Shown: positions 24,457 to 35,151 of the stretch, piece by piece
Layout: each line of letters begins with the position of its first letter
Numbering within the stretch: position 1 is the stretch's first letter
Source: a virus
Reading direction: 5' to 3' (one strand)
Length of the DNA stretch: 64,000 nucleotides
IMG/VR virus record: IMGVR_UViG_3300030497_000008
Coordinates: 64,001 to 128,000 of that record
The notes under the pieces: generated by a model
The model's database searches: none
Seen by the model: the letters and a program-made list of their open reading frames with translations, nothing else
What the model was told of the DNA's origin: nothing
Translations under genes and position numbers: made by a program

Positions 24457-24467
24457 GAGTGAAGTAC

Positions 24468-27400
24468 ATGGCAAATGTTAATTTAAATGAAGCACCATAC
24501 TACGATAGATTTGCACCAAACAGCAACAGAGAAAGAGTCTTGTTCCATTCGGACAGGGCTCTACAACAATCTGAGTTGAACGAGATGCAATCCATCTTTG
24601 ACTTTAACGTTAAAAGAATGGGTGACAGTATCTTTAAAGACGGTGCAATCCAATCAGGTATGGCATTCAATTTTACATACGTAGACCCAAAAGACAAAAC
24701 AAAAGGCGTTACCGCTATCACCGTTGAAGATGGTTTTATTTATTTAGCTGGTAAGATTCGTTCATTCACAGCACAAACCATTCCATTCACAGGCAAAGGT
24801 AAAGAGATTATCGGTGTCGAACTTTCACAGAAAGTAATCACATCAGCAGACGACCCTACATTACTTGACCCAACTCAAGATGTAGCTAACTATCTATCAG
24901 AAGGTGCAGATAGATTAGAAGAGCGAGTAGTGATTACTTACAATAAAGATGCAGCAACATCTATCTATGAATTTAATGATGGCGATTTATTCATCGAGCC
25001 AGACCGACCAGAGTTCTCTCTAATCAACGATGTGTTAGCACTCCGCGATAAAGAGACATTAGGCTCATACCAAATCGAAGGATTCCAGATGTGGGTGGAT
25101 AAAGGATTAGATGCAAATCATATTACAGTAGGTGTAGATAGCGGTGTTGCTTACGTAAATGGTTACCGAATTTCTAAACCATCATCTACTAGAATACAAG
25201 TTCCAAAAGAGAAGACAACTAGTACCGTTAACCAAGAAGGTTACACATATGACTCTGCTAAACAACGAGTAGTATTAAGTAGCCAGTTCGTTAATAAAGT
25301 GAGCGTAGTTGTTGGTCGTACTGATAGTCCTTCTGAGGCTTCTGGTGGCGTCCGTATCAATAAAGGAGTTAAAGGTGGTAGAGATACAATCCCTGCACAG
25401 TACACAAACATCGACGACAACTCATTGAAAGTGTACGTAGGCTCAACAGTATACATAAAAAACACAGACTATCGTTTAGTAATGGATGGTGGTATTCAGT
25501 ACATCCAGTGGGGTATTAACCTAAATGGTAAAGAGCCAGATACAGGTACTGCCTATAACTTAACATTCGAATACGATAGAGTCATGGTAGAGAATACAGA
25601 CTACAAGGTTGTTCGTACAGATAACGAGAACGGTATCGGATGGCTTACAGAGGTATTATTCAACGTAGCTGGTGGTACAAGACCTAAAGCAAACGGTAGA
25701 ATTTCTGTTACATATGACTACACACTATCTCGTGAAGATATCGTAACACTAGATATGAAAGGTAACTTCACATTAATCCAAGGTCAACCAGCTCGTGAAG
25801 GTGACGCTCGTATCCCAGATAACGTAGACCCATTAACATTCAAGATTGGTAATATCCATTTATTCCCTAACTCTGATGAGGCTATCGTTAAGAACACAGC
25901 CGTTATGCGACTACGTATGGAAGACTTGCAGGTTATGAAAGCTAGACTTGAAAACGTCGAGTACAACCAAGCTATCCTTATGCTAGAGAAACAAGCAACA
26001 AAATCTCAAGACCCGTTAACGATGCGTGGCGTATTCGCAGATGCTTTCACTGACTTCTCTCGAATCGATAAAGCAGAGACAACAGTTGCATTCTCTTTCG
26101 ACGATGCTCATATTACATTGTCAACGAATACACCAGACAACCAGAAGGTTCGTCCTAAATTTATGGAGAACGAGTCAGTAGCGAAGTCATGGGGACGATT
26201 AGTAACAGCCCCGTTCACAGAGACAGCAGAGATTGTACAACCGTTAGCAACATCTCCTATGAACGTTAACCCGTACCAAGTATTCAACAAGCAAGGTTTA
26301 CTTAAGTTAGAACCTTCTGCTGATAACTGGATTGACGAACAGAGAATTACGTTATACAATGAAGAGTTTGCAACTACGAACATTAACCGTTGGTGGGCTC
26401 ACCAAGGTGACGGTGATGCTGGTAAGTTAAATGACTACAACCAATGGCTAGTAGATAATACAAACTTATTAGGTGGAGCACAATGGAACGAAGCATCATT
26501 AGGTTGGTTGAAAACAGATAAAGCAGAGGGTGTTATGTGGAGCTCCGCTCAGACAACTCGTAATGAGATGGTCGAGTACATGAGACCTATTGACGTTAGC
26601 TTTAGCGTTTCTAACTTAAGTCCATTCGCAAATAACTTGACACTGACATTCGATGGAGTTCGAGTAGATGTAAAACCGACTGGAAGTACAGTAGCAGGTT
26701 CTCAGACAGGTACAGTACGTGCGGATGCAAACGGGGTGGCAACAGGTACATTTAAAATCCCACCAAACATCCGAACAGGAACACGAGAAGTTACAATCCG
26801 TGGTGGTACAGCAACAAACGTTACCGACCAAGCGACAACAACTTTCTCAGCTCAAGGTACTGCAAAGATTACAACGGATACAATTACACGTACACACGTT
26901 ACGTTCAACTTGTATGACCCGTTAGCACAATCTTTCGCATTCCCACAAGCACGTGTCGTATCATCTGTAGGTGTTTATTTCGCATCTAAGCCAGCTTCAA
27001 CAGCAACATCAGAGAATATCATCATGCAGATTCGTGGACTATCTGACGGAGGTTTACCAAACCGTACAGTGTACGCAGAACGTGTATTAACTCCTAAAGA
27101 CATCAATGTATCTAGTGACGCAACATTAGAAACTAAGATTGCACTTGATGACCCGTTAATGGTTGAAGCAGGACAAAGTTACTGTGTGGTATTCATCACA
27201 GACAGTGCTAACTATACGATGTGGACTGCTACACTAGGAGAGGATACAGTAGGGGTAGAAAAGCAAACTGTAACATCTCAGCCTTACGTGAACGGTGTTT
27301 TATTCAGTTCTTCTAACGCAGTATCATGGACGGTTCACCAAACAACTGACATGAAGTTCAAAATCTATACTGCTACCTTTGCAGAAGAAGGTATTATCGA

Positions 27401-28007
27401 ATTTGATACGATGCGTAATATCGATTCAAACGGCATCCTACTAATGGCTTCGTACTTAACACCAGACAACACAGGTTGTAGCTGGGAAGTTAAAATCGTT
27501 CCACAGTCTAGCATGGGAACTGTATCCATCGATAACGTACCGTGGCTGCCACTATCAAACTACTCAAGTCAACAGACACCATTCGTTGTTGGGTTAGCGA
27601 AGTTACGAGCCAAGTTCAAATCGAATCGTTATATCTCACCGATGTTAGCCCTAGATGATTTACTATTCGTAAACTTCGTAAGCGCGACGGAAGGTAAGTA
27701 CACAACAAGAACGATTGACCAGAAGGATGCACCTTTCAATACAATCATCATCGAGTACAGCGAAGCAGCTCCAGCAGGTACAAGCGTAACACCTCAGTAC
27801 TCGTTAAATGGTGGTACGAACTGGAACGACTTTAAAGGAGCTAAGAAGACTGCACCAGACACAGCAGAGTTCACACGTATCTCTATTACTGAGACTGTCG
27901 GAAACAACCAGACATCAGTTAAGTATCGTTTACTGCTTAAAGGTGATAATCGATTCTTACGTCCACGTGTTAAGAAACTTACAGCGTTAAATAGAACGAG
28001 CATTTAA
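24468..28007 (+). CDS. Large baseplate / adsorption protein (DUF4815-like)
   Basis: APYYDRF..VLF..RALQQSELNEMQS, GVFADAFTD, VNPYQVF, DPLAQSF motifs; ATG 24468 preferred over GTG 24459 on SD spacing. Confidence 0.85.
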   Translation: MANVNLNEAPYYDRFAPNSNRERVLFHSDRALQQSELNEMQSIFDFNVKRMGDSIFKDGAIQSGMAFNFTYVDPKDKTKGVTAITVEDGFIYLAGKIRSFTAQTIPFTGKGKEIIGVELSQKVITSADDPTLLDPTQDVANYLSEGADRLEERVVITYNKDAATSIYEFNDGDLFIEPDRPEFSLINDVLALRDKETLGSYQIEGFQMWVDKGLDANHITVGVDSGVAYVNGYRISKPSSTRIQVPKEKTTSTVNQEGYTYDSAKQRVVLSSQFVNKVSVVVGRTDSPSEASGGVRINKGVKGGRDTIPAQYTNIDDNSLKVYVGSTVYIKNTDYRLVMDGGIQYIQWGINLNGKEPDTGTAYNLTFEYDRVMVENTDYKVVRTDNENGIGWLTEVLFNVAGGTRPKANGRISVTYDYTLSREDIVTLDMKGNFTLIQGQPAREGDARIPDNVDPLTFKIGNIHLFPNSDEAIVKNTAVMRLRMEDLQVMKARLENVEYNQAILMLEKQATKSQDPLTMRGVFADAFTDFSRIDKAETTVAFSFDDAHITLSTNTPDNQKVRPKFMENESVAKSWGRLVTAPFTETAEIVQPLATSPMNVNPYQVFNKQGLLKLEPSADNWIDEQRITLYNEEFATTNINRWWAHQGDGDAGKLNDYNQWLVDNTNLLGGAQWNEASLGWLKTDKAEGVMWSSAQTTRNEMVEYMRPIDVSFSVSNLSPFANNLTLTFDGVRVDVKPTGSTVAGSQTGTVRADANGVATGTFKIPPNIRTGTREVTIRGGTATNVTDQATTTFSAQGTAKITTDTITRTHVTFNLYDPLAQSFAFPQARVVSSVGVYFASKPASTATSENIIMQIRGLSDGGLPNRTVYAERVLTPKDINVSSDATLETKIALDDPLMVEAGQSYCVVFITDSANYTMWTATLGEDTVGVEKQTVTSQPYVNGVLFSSSNAVSWTVHQTTDMKFKIYTATFAEEGIIEFDTMRNIDSNGILLMASYLTPDNTGCSWEVKIVPQSSMGTVSIDNVPWLPLSNYSSQQTPFVVGLAKLRAKFKSNRYISPMLALDDLLFVNFVSATEGKYTTRTIDQKDAPFNTIIIEYSEAAPAGTSVTPQYSLNGGTNWNDFKGAKKTAPDTAEFTRISITETVGNNQTSVKYRLLLKGDNRFLRPRVKKLTALNRTSI

Positions 28008-28289: not shown

Positions 28290-30062
28290 ATGAAGATAAC
28301 AGTTGGAATCATCTATACACACGTAGATTTCGATGGAGATACATTAAAAGAGGAAAAGGTAAAAGACCATATGCATCATAAGTTAGGAGTAAAAGACCCT
28401 AACGCTATACATTCAAGAGCATATAAGAGCGGAGCATGGGATGGTATTACAGATTACTACGATATGAAAGAGAACTCGTTCCCTACAGGACTAGTAAATT
28501 TATTCTTAGAAGGTATCCGTGAAATGCAAGAGTACCTTCCAAACCTTACATATGAATTAATAGATAATAGACCATCACCATTATTACACCCTGATAATCT
28601 AGATAAAGAGATTGAGCTTATCAAGGATGGACAAACTATCACATTACGTGACTATCAATATCGTGCAGTAGAAGCAATCATTCGTGACCAAATCGGAATT
28701 GTCAACTTAGCAACAAACGCGGGTAAAACGATGTCTGCTGCTGGAATCATTAAAATTCTCATGCCATTGATTGGACGCAATGAACGTATTGTATTCATGG
28801 TACACTCAAAGGATATCTTAAGTCAAGCTAAAAAAAGTATTACAGAGGCATTAGGTATGAAAGAGAAAGATGTCGGACTAGTTGGAGAAGGCAAGTTCGA
28901 TATTAAGAATAAGAAGCTAGTATTCGTTATGAGTCCAACTCTATCAAGTGCATTATCAGACCCGAAGAAAGGTGTGACACTAACACAAAAGGATAGACTT
29001 GTCAAGAAGATGGCAGAAGAGATAGCTCCTAAGTTCCTTGATACAGTAAACACTCGAACATTGATTAAGAATTTCCTAAAGAACTGGAAGCCAAAAACAA
29101 AGAACGATGTCGAGATTGAACAAATCTTAACAGCTCTTGCTTACGATAATGCATATACTGACAAGAAAGTACAAATGGTTCTACGAAGCTACAATGCAGA
29201 GTTCGAGAAAATCCTTCTTAAGAAGAATAAAAAGAATTTCGAAAAATGGAAAACTGCTAAAGATTTTGTCGAATCGGTTCGAGTATTTATTGGGGATGAG
29301 GCTCATAGAATTAAAGGTGATACATGGTACACGAATGCATTGCAATTTTCAAATGCACAATACCGAGTAGCCCTAACAGGTACAGTTGACAAAAAAGATG
29401 TTCATCTATATCAACGTATCCGCGCACTATTCAATGACATCATCGTTAAAGTATCTAATGACGAACTTATCAGTCGAGGCGTTTCTTCCAAACCAAAAAT
29501 CAGAATGTTAGAAATAAAAGAACCTCGCGGTATCGAATTAGCAGATAACTACATGGAAGCTTATAAAGTAGGAATCTCTCAAAATGATTACCGAAATGAT
29601 ATGGCAGTACAAGTAGCCGTTGCATTCTATGAAAAGAAAAAAGCTGGAGTACTATTCTCTGTCAATCATATCGAACACGGTGAAAGTATTCAAGAGAAAC
29701 TTAGAGCCAAAGGTTACGAGTGTTCATTCTTAAAAGGTGAACTAGAATTGGACGAGCGTAAAGAAGTACTTGACAAGTTCTCATCTGGTGAGATACCATT
29801 TATGATTGGTACGACTATTATCGATGAAGGTCTCGATTTAAGTTGTATCGGTTGTCTTGTATTAGCTGGTGCAGGGAAAAGTCTTCGACAAATTCTGCAA
29901 CGTATCGGTCGTGGATTGCGCTTAAATGGTATCGATGGAAACCAAACGTTAGTAATTGATTTTATCGACAAAACACATAAGATTTTACTTAAGCATTCGA
30001 AAGAAAGACTTAGAATCTACCAAGACGAAAAGTTCGATGTCCGATATTTAGGGGCGAAGTAG
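28290..30062 (+). CDS. SF2 DNA helicase (UvsW-like)
   Basis: LRDYQ Q-motif, ATNAGKT Walker A, DEAH, ALTGT, QRIGRGLR. Confidence 0.92.
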   Translation: MKITVGIIYTHVDFDGDTLKEEKVKDHMHHKLGVKDPNAIHSRAYKSGAWDGITDYYDMKENSFPTGLVNLFLEGIREMQEYLPNLTYELIDNRPSPLLHPDNLDKEIELIKDGQTITLRDYQYRAVEAIIRDQIGIVNLATNAGKTMSAAGIIKILMPLIGRNERIVFMVHSKDILSQAKKSITEALGMKEKDVGLVGEGKFDIKNKKLVFVMSPTLSSALSDPKKGVTLTQKDRLVKKMAEEIAPKFLDTVNTRTLIKNFLKNWKPKTKNDVEIEQILTALAYDNAYTDKKVQMVLRSYNAEFEKILLKKNKKNFEKWKTAKDFVESVRVFIGDEAHRIKGDTWYTNALQFSNAQYRVALTGTVDKKDVHLYQRIRALFNDIIVKVSNDELISRGVSSKPKIRMLEIKEPRGIELADNYMEAYKVGISQNDYRNDMAVQVAVAFYEKKKAGVLFSVNHIEHGESIQEKLRAKGYECSFLKGELELDERKEVLDKFSSGEIPFMIGTTIIDEGLDLSCIGCLVLAGAGKSLRQILQRIGRGLRLNGIDGNQTLVIDFIDKTHKILLKHSKERLRIYQDEKFDVRYLGAK

Positions 30063-30840
30063 TATGGGTGTCAAAATATGTACTAAATGTCATATAGAGA
30101 AAGAGCTTACCGATACTAATTTTCGAATAAGAAAAGGTAAATATATTTCTCAATGTCGTGAATGTGAGAGAGCATATACTCGAAGAAACCAAAAAGAACG
30201 TTATGCTGCTGATAAAGACAAGATTTTATCTAAGAATAAAAAGTGGCGTGATAAGAATAAAGACTACATAAAAGAGTACAACCACGCCTATCATAAAGAG
30301 TACACCGAGAAGAATAAAGAACTGCTGTTAGAAAAGCAACGTGAGTATAGACGAGACAACGAATCAAACGTTAAAGCAAATCAACAACGCTACTATCAGG
30401 AAAACAAAGAGAATTATAAAGAGAATGGAAGACGTTGGCGTGAGGAGAATAGAGAAAAATATAACGAGATACAGCGGACATGGAGACAAAATAACCAAGA
30501 GAAAGTTCGTATTTACAGGCAGCGACGACGAACATTAGAGGAGTCTACTATTGCAGACCTTACAGAAGAAGATTGGGAGTTTACTAAAGACTATTTTAAT
30601 AATACTTGCGCGTATTGCGGCGATGTTGATTCAAAACTATGTCAAGACCATTTTATACCCCTTACTAGCGGAGGCGGATACACTATTAGTAATATAATAC
30701 CTGCTTGTACGTCTTGTAATAGCAGTAAACATAACAACTCTTTCTTTGATTGGTATCCAAATCATAAGAGTTATAATCAAGAAAGAGAGGAGAAAATACT
30801 ATGTTTTTTAGAAGATGTGAAAATGCTCGGAGCAAAATAA
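30036..30840 (+). mobile_element. HNH insertion bounded by a recoded duplication of the helicase terminus
   Basis: 30036-30062 encodes DVRYLGAK* and 30814-30840 encodes DVKMLGAK*. Confidence 0.7.
30064..30840 (+). CDS. Free-standing HNH homing endonuclease
   Basis: N-terminal CTKC..CREC zinc finger, charged helical repeats, CAYCG..DHFIP...GG..ISNIIPACTSCNSSK HNH domain. Confidence 0.92.
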   Translation: MGVKICTKCHIEKELTDTNFRIRKGKYISQCRECERAYTRRNQKERYAADKDKILSKNKKWRDKNKDYIKEYNHAYHKEYTEKNKELLLEKQREYRRDNESNVKANQQRYYQENKENYKENGRRWREENREKYNEIQRTWRQNNQEKVRIYRQRRRTLEESTIADLTEEDWEFTKDYFNNTCAYCGDVDSKLCQDHFIPLTSGGGYTISNIIPACTSCNSSKHNNSFFDWYPNHKSYNQEREEKILCFLEDVKMLGAK

Positions 30841-30864
30841 TTGTCCTACCATGAAGATAATCTA

Positions 30865-30893
30865 TTGATTGTCTTCTTTTTTTATGCTAATAT
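30865..30893 (+). promoter_or_regulatory. Sigma-A-like promoter
   Basis: TTGATT-N17-TAATAT with TG extension. Confidence 0.5.
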
Positions 30894-30926
30894 ACTTTTT
30901 GTAAAATAATTTAAGGAGTTGTACAT

Positions 30927-31763
30927 ATGGCAAGAGAACGAATTGACCTGCTTGCAGGTGAGAATACATATAAAGAGTTATCCACATTTACAGACTTGGA
31001 GGAAATGAACAAGACAGTTCGTACATACCGTGACAAGATTAAAGAACTTAAAGTTCGTGAAGATGTGAAGGACAAGCTCTCCAAGTTGATTATGATACTT
31101 AAGAAACATAGCTGCAAACACTTAGGAGTAAGCTTCCTGACGAAACGCTCCATATCAGTAATCATGGGAGTAAGTTATAAGACGGTGCAGCGACTGGTTA
31201 AAAGATTGGTAGACTTACATATGATTCAAGAACATGCAATGAAGCGACCGACAGACATGAGACAGACATCAAATGCAATTACAATTGAGCCATACATAAA
31301 CGAAGAGGAGTCCTACAAGACACCTCAAAAAAATGTACATAACTGTCCGAGCAAGAAAACAACAGCTATAAACCTTAAAACAAAACATAAAACATATAAA
31401 AGATTAAAAGAACGTAATGATTTACATAATAAGAGTAATACTAGAGATAATATAAAAGACGCAGAATTTGTGGCACACTGGGTATCGCCACGTTTCGCTA
31501 ACTTAGCATCTTCTTATTTTGATAAAGCTAAAGACATAGAAGAGTTCTGGAAAGTAGTTAAACAGAATAATAGACCTGTTAACGGTGAGAAACTATTCAC
31601 AAAGTCACAGGAGGAAAAAATTGGCATAGCAGCACTACAAAGTCTTGTTATGAAATACAAAAAAGGCGTTAGAATCAAGAAATCTTTATTCTCATATTTC
31701 CACGGAATTGTGGACAAATTGATGACTAAGTTCTACTTCGATGAAGAATTTATGGCTTGCTAA
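30927..31763 (+). CDS. Helix-turn-helix protein, replication-initiator-like
   Basis: GVSFLTKRSISVIMGVSYKTVQRLVKRLVDLHMI winged HTH, K/T/N-rich linker, C-terminal helical domain; resembles Bacillus phage/plasmid Rep-like HTH proteins. Confidence 0.7.
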   Translation: MARERIDLLAGENTYKELSTFTDLEEMNKTVRTYRDKIKELKVREDVKDKLSKLIMILKKHSCKHLGVSFLTKRSISVIMGVSYKTVQRLVKRLVDLHMIQEHAMKRPTDMRQTSNAITIEPYINEEESYKTPQKNVHNCPSKKTTAINLKTKHKTYKRLKERNDLHNKSNTRDNIKDAEFVAHWVSPRFANLASSYFDKAKDIEEFWKVVKQNNRPVNGEKLFTKSQEEKIGIAALQSLVMKYKKGVRIKKSLFSYFHGIVDKLMTKFYFDEEFMAC

Positions 31764-33660: not shown

Positions 33661-35151
33661 ATGGTAAAACCTATGGTTAAAGAGATTTTAAGAAAGGCGA
33701 TTATGCACCCCGCATTTGCTAAGGAGATTTTGCCTATCATACCTAAGTCTGCGCTTGACAACGACAACATGAGTATTGAGCTGGCACAGGTATTACGGCT
33801 ATTCTATCAAACTAACTCCGCTTCCATTACAGAGGCGGCGCTTACTACTTTAGTAGAAGCTAAGTTAGATAGACAGAAGGCAGATGCAGAGAAACAACAA
33901 GAGTACTTCGATACCATCAGCGAGCTATATGATATTCGAGATAGCAGCGATGACGAGGTAATCGATGAAGCCTTATCCAAACATATTAAGCGCTATATGC
34001 GTATTGAATTACTTAAGAAAGCAGCTATGAAGCTGGACGACGAAGTTTTCCAAGATAAACTAGCGGATGAACTTCGATACATATTATCTTTAGACATTAC
34101 AGGCGGTAACGATAAGATTATCAACGTTATCGACGATAAAGAATACAAGCGACGATTACTGGAAACAGTACAGTCGAATACGATTCCTACTGGATTCAAA
34201 GAGCTAGATAGATTGAATGGTGGCGGTTTAGCTAAAGGTGAACTAGGGCTTGTATCAGCATTATCAGGTTCTGGTAAAACTTTATTCTTGACAAACTTAG
34301 CTACTTCATATGTTAAACAAGGTTATAATGTGTTATTCATTGCTTTAGAGGAGCTAGAAAATCGAATGGTACTTCGATTCGAACAAGCTATGTTAAGCCA
34401 ATCTAGAGCAGACATTATTACGAACGGAGTATTGAACGAAGACGCATTTGAACGAAGACAGCGTTTCTATGAGAAGTATAGAGACAACTTCGGTAACTTG
34501 TTCTTTGCTCGCTACTCTCCACGAACAGTTACACCATTTACGATTGAACAACTTATCTCAGATGTTCTATTACGTAAAGGTGTACAGCTAGATATCGTAA
34601 TCATTGACTACCCTGAGTTACTACGAAACCCTAATGCTACAGGTAATGAAGCAGAAGATGGTGGACGATTATTCGAAGAGGTTCGACGTATTGCACAAGA
34701 CTACAATGTTTTAATGTGGACAGCCTCTCAGTTAAACCGTTCAGCGTACAACGCAGTTACGCGTACATCAGAACATATGGAAGGTTCTATTCGTAAGAAG
34801 AACGCGACGGAATTAGTTCTAGTAGTCAACCAAACTCCAGAAGAGTATGAAGCAGGATTCGTGCGGCTATATGCAGATAAGGTTCGTAACCCGCCTGACG
34901 GAGTTTATGATAAGATGCTAGGATTCGTAGTAGACGGTAAGCGGCAATTGATTCGTGATTATGAACCTGACCCGTACGACCCAAATAAAATATCTCCTGA
35001 GAAGTTGGAACATCAACGGATTCTAAAAGAAGTAGAAGACCAGAGGAACTCTCTAGGTATCAATAAGGGTGGCGGAGATAAAGGTAATAAACCTCCTATG
35101 CCAAATTTAAGTGACGAAATAAATAAAGCACTTGCAGGTGGCGCGAAATAG
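33661..35151 (+). CDS. DnaB-like replicative helicase
   Basis: IPTGFKELD..GGLAKGEL..SGSGKT, ALEE, IIDY, ASQLNR. Confidence 0.92.
   Translation: MVKPMVKEILRKAIMHPAFAKEILPIIPKSALDNDNMSIELAQVLRLFYQTNSASITEAALTTLVEAKLDRQKADAEKQQEYFDTISELYDIRDSSDDEVIDEALSKHIKRYMRIELLKKAAMKLDDEVFQDKLADELRYILSLDITGGNDKIINVIDDKEYKRRLLETVQSNTIPTGFKELDRLNGGGLAKGELGLVSALSGSGKTLFLTNLATSYVKQGYNVLFIALEELENRMVLRFEQAMLSQSRADIITNGVLNEDAFERRQRFYEKYRDNFGNLFFARYSPRTVTPFTIEQLISDVLLRKGVQLDIVIIDYPELLRNPNATGNEAEDGGRLFEEVRRIAQDYNVLMWTASQLNRSAYNAVTRTSEHMEGSIRKKNATELVLVVNQTPEEYEAGFVRLYADKVRNPPDGVYDKMLGFVVDGKRQLIRDYEPDPYDPNKISPEKLEHQRILKEVEDQRNSLGINKGGGDKGNKPPMPNLSDEINKALAGGAK

Follow-up and report, generated by a model that had tools for sequence, protein, structure and literature searches.

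The stretch of DNA analysed here (the window) comprises 64,000 nucleotides, bases 64001-128000 of a 161,391-bp phage record (IMG/VR IMGVR_UViG_3300030497_000008), and the subject of this report is an HNH endonuclease gene that lies at the 3' end of a DNA helicase gene and shares with it a short, similar C-terminus. The host gene of this element (28290-30062, + strand) encodes a UvsW-like superfamily 2 (SF2) DNA helicase of 590 residues, as indicated by the Pfam ResIII and Helicase_C domains and by the match to PHROG 16 ('DNA helicase'), with a distant relationship to T4 uvsW (26% identity in tblastn). The open reading frame (ORF) of the endonuclease (30064-30840, + strand; 258 residues) starts one base past the helicase stop, in another frame. 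It contains a Pfam HNH/HNH_5 match (PF01844/PF14279) at residues 182-225, over the cut-off with E = 2.4e-9, and reads into its last codons without a stop of its own.

The helicase gene ends GAT GTC CGA TAT TTA GGG GCG AAG TAG, encoding ...EKF DVRYLGAK, and the HNH ORF ends GAT GTG AAA ATG CTC GGA GCA AAA TAA, encoding ...FLE DVKMLGAK. Six of the eight residues and the position of the stop match between the two tails, with all six of the shared degenerate codons after GAT (stop included) differing; an earlier note on this DNA had drawn attention to these similar peptides in dissimilar codons, and direct reading confirmed its description. In a six-frame translation of the whole 64-kb window, which yields 127,954 eight-residue segments, the HNH C-terminus is the only match to DVRYLGAK at six or more positions apart from DVRYLGAK itself, so that the similarity of the termini is not due to chance.

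The uninterrupted form of the locus is found in near relatives. A megablast search of the locus against GenBank phages returned Bacillus phage Maceta (MH538296, Bastillevirus) as the only match, 97% identical across the locus and without the HNH gene, in agreement with the assignment to the Bastillevirinae made in the earlier note. (The Maceta record, L001, is filed as a 45-kb 'complete genome' though its relatives are of approximately 160 kb, and its metadata look doubtful.) The IMG/VR contig L019 (159.8 kb), with about 98% DNA identity at the locus, also lacks the HNH gene. In both, the helicase ends ...AAGTTC GATGTGAAAATGCT(T/C)GGAGCAAAATAA, the Maceta form being ...AAGTTC GATGTGAAAATGCTTGGAGCAAAATAA, and runs into DNA identical to the window from 30841 onward, which is the end and the continuation that had been predicted for HNH-less relatives, and not the DVRYLGAK end with unrelated downstream DNA that would have spoken against the prediction. 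Because the HNH-less alleles run from the helicase directly through the sequence at 30814-30840, the insert measures 778 bp; by alignment with Maceta and comparison with L019 it is placed at 30036-30813 (+ strand), with a junction ambiguous by five bases, GATGT being present at 30036-30040 and at 30814-30818.

The two ends can thus be told apart. That at 30814-30840 is identical to the L019 helicase end at 27/27 bases and to that of Maceta at 26/27, whereas that at 30036-30062 differs from the native end at 12/27 bases, compared with 36/1700 (2.1%) in the helicase body (Fisher, 6e-13), and is absent as such from the HNH-less relatives. Therefore, the downstream copy (30814-30840, + strand; DVKMLGAK and TAA) is the resident original helicase terminus, now read as residues 251-258 and stop of the HNH protein, and the upstream copy (30036-30062, + strand; DVRYLGAK and TAG) is a replacement terminus supplied with the insert. 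That the similarity is a coincidence, or an artefact of assembly or annotation, has a negligible probability: the repeat is just eight residues long, but besides being the sole match of its quality in the window it recurs in seven independently assembled lineages, and the empty alleles match to the base.

It is also very improbable that the HNH gene belongs to a group I intron or an intein, with the helicase restored by RNA or protein splicing. The Bastillevirinae are rich in group I introns carrying HNH genes (PMC11878797), but here the reading frame of the helicase is complete, with a full-length terminus that stops at 30062, and the non-coding bases of the insert amount to one 5' of the ORF and none 3' of it. 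An Rfam search of 29500-31300 returned no family even at E = 1 and hence no ribozyme core, for which the earlier note had seen no room. The HNH gene lies after the stop and in a different frame from the helicase, and no Hint domain was found by Pfam.

The same architecture was found in six further Bastillevirinae lineages (f2b1, L012, L016, L017, L042/L060 and L065), in which an HNH gene lies directly 3' of the same helicase. Members of this group were found through protein databases and a helicase-based scan, and the seven lineages come from GenBank, IMG/VR, ENA, JGI and Logan. Their HNH proteins are 49-65% identical among themselves, and in each of the six further lineages the HNH protein ends in a copy of the tail of its own helicase (tails given for helicase and HNH, respectively, each followed by a stop: FDVKILGS and FDVKTLGS in f2b1; DMRLLGGDKK and DMKLLGK in L012; DVKVVGK and DVKVIGK in L016; DCKIIGR and DVKVLGK in L017; DVKVLGK and DVKVLGK in L042/L060; DVKVLGQ and DVKRLGQ in L065). 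The HNH-side copy of L012 is identical to the native end of the HNH-less L025 and L022 at 24/24 bases. Such tails are confined to the seven helicase-linked proteins, none of approximately 250 more distant HNH homologues having one. About half of the latter end in a QQL-type motif, most commonly ..ILxYLGYxxxxQQLSIL. The LGAK ending at other loci, which the earlier note had named as evidence against its reading, is not seen. In an exhaustive search, most homologue alignments to the window protein stop at residue 249-251, i.e. at the junction. An IMG/VR scan with the HNH protein alone gave only distant matches in unrelated contexts, and megablast of the f2b1 locus against GenBank phages returned f2b1 itself only. 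The f2b1 record (L002, MN940411) is filed with Staphylococcus aureus as host though it is a Bastillevirinae genome, and its metadata look doubtful.

The precise presence/absence polymorphism among close genomes that characterizes free-standing homing genes is found at this one site at 97-98% DNA identity, both between the window and Maceta and L019 and between L012 and L025 and L020, and also at approximately 90% between f2b1 and L045. About 40 of the 46 helicase loci surveyed are without the HNH gene, and for four of the HNH-bearing lineages the nearest HNH-less helicase found has 96-100% protein identity. The site falls in a conserved stretch of an important gene, the F-D-V/M-K tail motif being present in nearly all surveyed Bastillevirinae helicase loci. 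In a maximum-likelihood tree the seven helicase-linked HNHs are monophyletic (100/99), with those of the window and L012 as sisters (86/95), and the helicase tree has the same deep split, with every HNH-bearing genome nested among HNH-less near-relatives. Given the monophyly of the HNH clade and the matching deep split, the capture of the helicase end looks like one old event, early in the HNH clade. Jumping of the HNH gene across lineages was also considered and is not supported, because its tree matches the deep helicase split. Thus, where the earlier note saw a homing element that had landed eight codons before the helicase stop and taken the original end as its own C-terminus, the site and the borrowed end stand, but a recent landing in this genome does not, the capture appearing old and clade-wide. 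After the capture, the HNH gene is read as having stayed long at the site, its patchy presence deriving from homing, loss or both.

The part played by loss must be weighed here. It might be argued that the cassette is ancestral and no longer moving, that it was precisely deleted between direct repeats in the relatives now without it (Maceta, L019, L025 and others), and that the pattern is therefore one of loss and not of homing. The 5-6 bp direct repeats (GATGT; GATATG in L012) are exactly at both junctions, the HNH tree broadly follows that of the helicase, as vertical descent predicts, and the downstream copy never differs from the native end found in close relatives without the HNH gene, an automatic outcome of deletion; L020, moreover, resembles a deletion or conversion scar, with CGC kept. 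However, many independent exact deletions would be needed in every lineage, since HNH-less genomes are the large majority, and in all seven lineages, divergent by 35-50%, the HNH ORF and its catalytic residues have remained intact, suggesting that activity is still selected for. Moreover, loss and homing can both belong to the ordinary life cycle of such elements. Loss as the whole explanation is, thus, possible but rather unlikely. As to the latest change at this locus, either a gain in the window lineage or a loss in Maceta and L019 by deletion across GATGT is compatible with the data.

The enzyme itself looks active, as predicted from its intact HNH motif and zinc ligands, a confident model and the fold matches. 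Residues C182, C185, H196 (the catalytic histidine), N210, C215, C218 and N219, which include two CxxC zinc pairs, are invariant among 52 homologues and, together with the Pfam and fold matches, place the protein among the HNH (His-Me finger) nucleases, in a family of 15,576 representatives at E <= 1e-10. The AlphaFold model (predicted local distance difference test, pLDDT, 94.4) consists of a zinc ribbon (residues 1-31), an eight-helix repeat array (32-159), an HNH domain of the McrA/Cas9 type and a last helix (239-256), with the pLDDT falling to 65 over the captured tail. Foldseek matches (Cas9 HNH, the Gme HNH nickase and McrA) cover the catalytic domain only. The protein thus resembles nucleases such as the Gme HNH nicking endonuclease (4H9D) in catalytic fold and motifs, and differs from them in the N-terminal zinc ribbon and helix array, for which no solved counterpart appears among the Foldseek matches. 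The array (window 30157-30540) is made of eight tandem helices of about 15 residues each with a recurring Y-x3-N-K-E motif. In this large HNH family, it may be the part that reads the DNA sequence.

The persistence of the tail in the HNH protein could have another origin, namely that the enzyme is a domesticated helicase partner or a weapon against competitors, and that the tail is kept as a functional peptide, for example docking to the replisome partner of the helicase tail. Consistent with such a role, the tail has stayed in frame in each of the seven lineages despite their deep divergence and continues the last predicted helix, and the use of intron HNH enzymes as anti-competitor weapons, by PhiPA3 against PhiKZ, is cited in PMC11878797. 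This explanation is nonetheless improbable: the gene is dispensable, since most near-identical phages do without it, the copies of the tail follow the local native DNA to the base, as expected of a relic at the DNA level, the pLDDT drops in the tail, and reading into the resident stop was needed simply because the ORF is without a stop of its own.

Taken together, these findings favour, with a probability that we put at about 85%, an intron-less, free-standing HNH homing cassette that carries a substitute helicase end, borrows the original one, took up the helicase end in a single capture and would leave its carrier immune. The cassette is lodged between codons F582 and D583, eight codons before the helicase stop, and is made of two parts. 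The first is the diverged substitute for the last eight codons and stop, which keeps the helicase full-length; the second is the HNH ORF, which reads in frame through the displaced original terminus and uses its stop because it is without one. In a mixed infection, the enzyme would nick or cut genomes without the HNH gene, either at the uninterrupted F|DVK junction or close to it. The cassette would then be copied in during repair from an HNH-bearing genome, the left homology being provided by the helicase body and the right one by the original terminus together with intergenic DNA. Immunity of the carrier genome would follow from the absence of a rebuilt target at both junctions: the left half-site is followed by diverged sequence, in particular a K codon (AAA) replaced by one for R (CGA), and HNH sequence precedes the right half-site. 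With the capture placed early in the HNH clade, the clade would since have kept to this site across the Bastillevirinae, the cassette being present in some genomes of each lineage and absent from near-identical ones.

Several observations weigh against this interpretation, or at least against parts of it. Evidence for co-conversion of the flanks is weak in the window lineage. Relative to L019 and Maceta, the last 82 bases before the junction contain five single-nucleotide polymorphisms, following a stretch of 415 bases without any, and the 196 bases 3' of it contain none, so that a short co-conversion tract just 5' of the junction (30026-30035, + strand; window-specific changes at 30026 and 30029, GAC GAA versus GAA GAG) is weakly indicated; with L012 and L025 showing no differences in the last 60 bases before the junction, a clear tract was not upheld. 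Empty alleles could also be obtained by deletion across the GATGT or GATATG microhomology, and recent mobility is therefore not proven. Cutting of the empty junction by the HNH enzyme is a prediction, and for many phage HNH homing enzymes the nick lies some way from the point where the gene is inserted. No HNH donor above 57% identity was found in any collection searched. Finally, the synonymous divergence of the two copies is not above random, and there is no sign of selection for recoding beyond old divergence: over the seven lineages, 29/46 shared degenerate codons differ, with 30.1 expected under random codon choice. The 'recoded' replacement end of the earlier note is thus correct as to the differing codons but not as to any excess of differences over chance, and excess synonymous recoding was rejected, since the divergence equals the random expectation. 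The copies appear to have diverged to saturation, which fits a foreign or anciently separated copy.

The cassette occurs in two layouts. In the compact one (window and L012) the HNH start is 1-2 bases past the helicase stop, with no promoter. In the spaced one (f2b1, L016, L017, L042 and L065) a spacer of 37-70 bases carries a conserved TGnTATATTAT box and a strong Shine-Dalgarno (SD) sequence (-9 to -11 kcal/mol). For the window, the earlier note had proposed that TTAGGGG in the replacement terminus serves as SD for the HNH start. This part of the note fared poorly, the calculated duplex with the anti-SD being weak (-5.6 kcal/mol, with -5.8 for the native end and -8 to -12 for neighbouring genes). 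An SD created by recoding was accordingly rejected, the native end and 20% of random 18-mers pairing equally well. The arrangement TAG-T-ATG and the weak SD suggest that the HNH gene is expressed here at a low level, through coupling with translation of the helicase. Four of the five spaced cassettes have in the spacer, just 5' of the box, a third copy of the helicase tail, which is decaying and is not translated (spacers at L002:3432-3500, L016:1989-2058, L017:66-134 and L042:2348-2412; in f2b1, for example, TTTGACTTGAAGACACTTGGA), and L065 has the box without the copy. This additional copy may be a relic, left when one terminus replacement was followed by another, or an operator.

A single codon of the tail stands out. 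The K codon of the F-D-V-K motif is changed at all three bases, from AAR to CGN, in the replacement terminus of both the window (CGA) and L012 (CGC), and the same change is seen among HNH-less phages, in L020 versus L025 and in L057, L059 and L062 versus L058, i.e. between relatives otherwise 91-96% identical over 900 bases. L046 and L049 have CGT at this codon and are without a compared K-bearing near relative. In HNH-less phages the CGN (Arg) for AAR (Lys) replacements are at L020:2329-2334, L057:2239-2241, L062:2334-2337 and, in both L046 and L049, 2329-2331. Drift is an unlikely cause of changes to an entire codon at the same position in several lineages. Such changes would fit candidate target-site immunity alleles or scars of cassette loss.

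The same helicase end has also received other DNA. A second, unrelated HNH gene of 309 residues (PF01844; PHROG 559/144) is found there in two other Bastillevirinae contigs (L043:2320-3300 and L047:2320-3300). Endonucleases of at least two families have thus settled at the helicase terminus, which is a hot spot for them. In these contigs the helicase end is altered to ..GGA GGT AAx stop, which forms a strong SD, and in L047 the last eight bases of the native end, GTAGCTAA, remain just 3' of the HNH stop. In the HNH-less L041 (2348-2560) the hot spot contains a further small insertion, with approximately 200 additional bases separating the helicase stop from the conserved promoter of the following gene.

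Among known systems, the closest similarities are with fungal mitochondrial mobile ORFs (mORFs), which make 'gene hybrids' in Allomyces macrogynus atp6 and in Glomus sp. atp6, atp9, cox2 and nad3 (PMC3630166), so that the analogy drawn in the earlier note holds. As in mORFs (PMC3630166), the insert brings a foreign C-terminus in phase and the native one is displaced downstream of the endonuclease ORF, where it remains near-identical to that of element-free relatives, with the two copies alike in protein and far apart in DNA (here, 27/27 bases identical for the native copy and 15/27 for the inserted one, with 6/8 residues kept). However, the mitochondrial enzymes are of the LAGLIDADG or GIY-YIG type, act in organelle genomes and replace tens of codons, whereas here an HNH enzyme in a virulent Herelleviridae Bacillus phage replaces eight. 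Furthermore, the endonuclease is here a separate ORF after the helicase stop, and it is its C-terminus, not the host gene, that is fused to the native relic. Thus, the cassette works like the mORF class without belonging to it.

Like the T-even free-standing endonucleases SegF, SegG and MobE, the HNH gene adjoins a conserved DNA-metabolism gene and is present or absent among close relatives (PMC2988022). Many T4 free-standing endonuclease genes have no promoter and are coupled in translation, or else overlap the preceding ORF and have a poor ribosome-binding site, and the review contains no cassette that provides a second version of a gene end while extending into the displaced one (PMC2988022). 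The T4 Seg and Mob genes differ from the present one in that they sit between genes or split one (mobE in Aeh1 nrdA, mobA in T4 gene 39/60). The immunity of SegF and SegG carriers derives from target sequence differences. T4 mobA and the 50-nt bypass element of gene 60 reportedly form one mobile cassette, in which the bypass sequence in the essential target gene is said to preserve function while destroying the enzyme's own target. The protective element is there an untranslated bypass insert, whereas here it is a translated, diverged copy of the terminus. No phage report of terminus replacement by a homing endonuclease was found in searches of the open literature, and a 2025 survey of Bastillevirinae introns leaves the helicase unmentioned (PMC11878797).

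As to the surroundings of the locus, the native intergenic signals downstream of the insert are intact (30853-30896, + strand), being identical in the empty alleles; a consensus scan identified a terminator-like hairpin with a T-run (30853-30876, + strand) and a promoter-like site for the next gene (30869-30896, + strand). The latter (30927-31763, + strand; 278 residues, from the ORF list) is the right-hand homology flank common to HNH-less relatives. It has weak Pfam HTH_36/DnaD_N matches, and its Maceta counterpart is annotated 'helix-turn-helix DNA binding domain protein'. Upstream of the helicase, the 3' end of a tail-fibre/adsorption gene of 1182 residues (24459-28007) contains approximately 110 bases (27736-27851) almost wholly unlike L019 and Maceta between flanks that are 97-99% identical to them, and resembles a small swapped module. 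The tails of DnaB-like helicases (window 35128-35151, ..AGGAK; f2b1, L002:7580-7604, ..GEGS; each followed by a stop) loosely echo those of the UvsW-like helicases of the same phages (..LGAK and ..LGS). A tail motif common to both helicase types was set aside as probably due to chance, three cases having been compared. A second HNH-domain ORF, a 177-aa open frame, lies in the same phage genome outside the window (G000:C1:51161-51331).

A joint reading of all these features can be put forward tentatively, and is itself somewhat doubtful: the Bastillevirinae helicase tail may be the site of a long-running natural 'home-and-rescue' gene drive, in which the HNH clade would have held the site since before the deep subfamily split, always carrying a rescue copy of the tail. 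The hosts would answer with K-to-R (AAR to CGN) immunity alleles, rounds of attack and repair would stack relic termini such as the third copy, and the captured eight residues may have become a working part of the nuclease. With regard to its wider meaning, the locus illustrates how a homing endonuclease, with neither intron nor intein, can enter the coding part of an important phage gene by means of a spare, non-target copy of the piece that it severs, which is the same logic as that of engineered 'home-and-rescue' gene drives and of the fungal mitochondrial mobile ORFs. For phage genomics, this accounts for endonuclease genes that terminate in a peptide of the adjacent gene, and for the locally foreign appearance that gene ends can have. 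Together with their matched empty alleles, the seven lineages constitute a natural test set for the target of the HNH enzyme, for the K-codon changes as immunity alleles and for the persistence of a selfish element over deep divergence.

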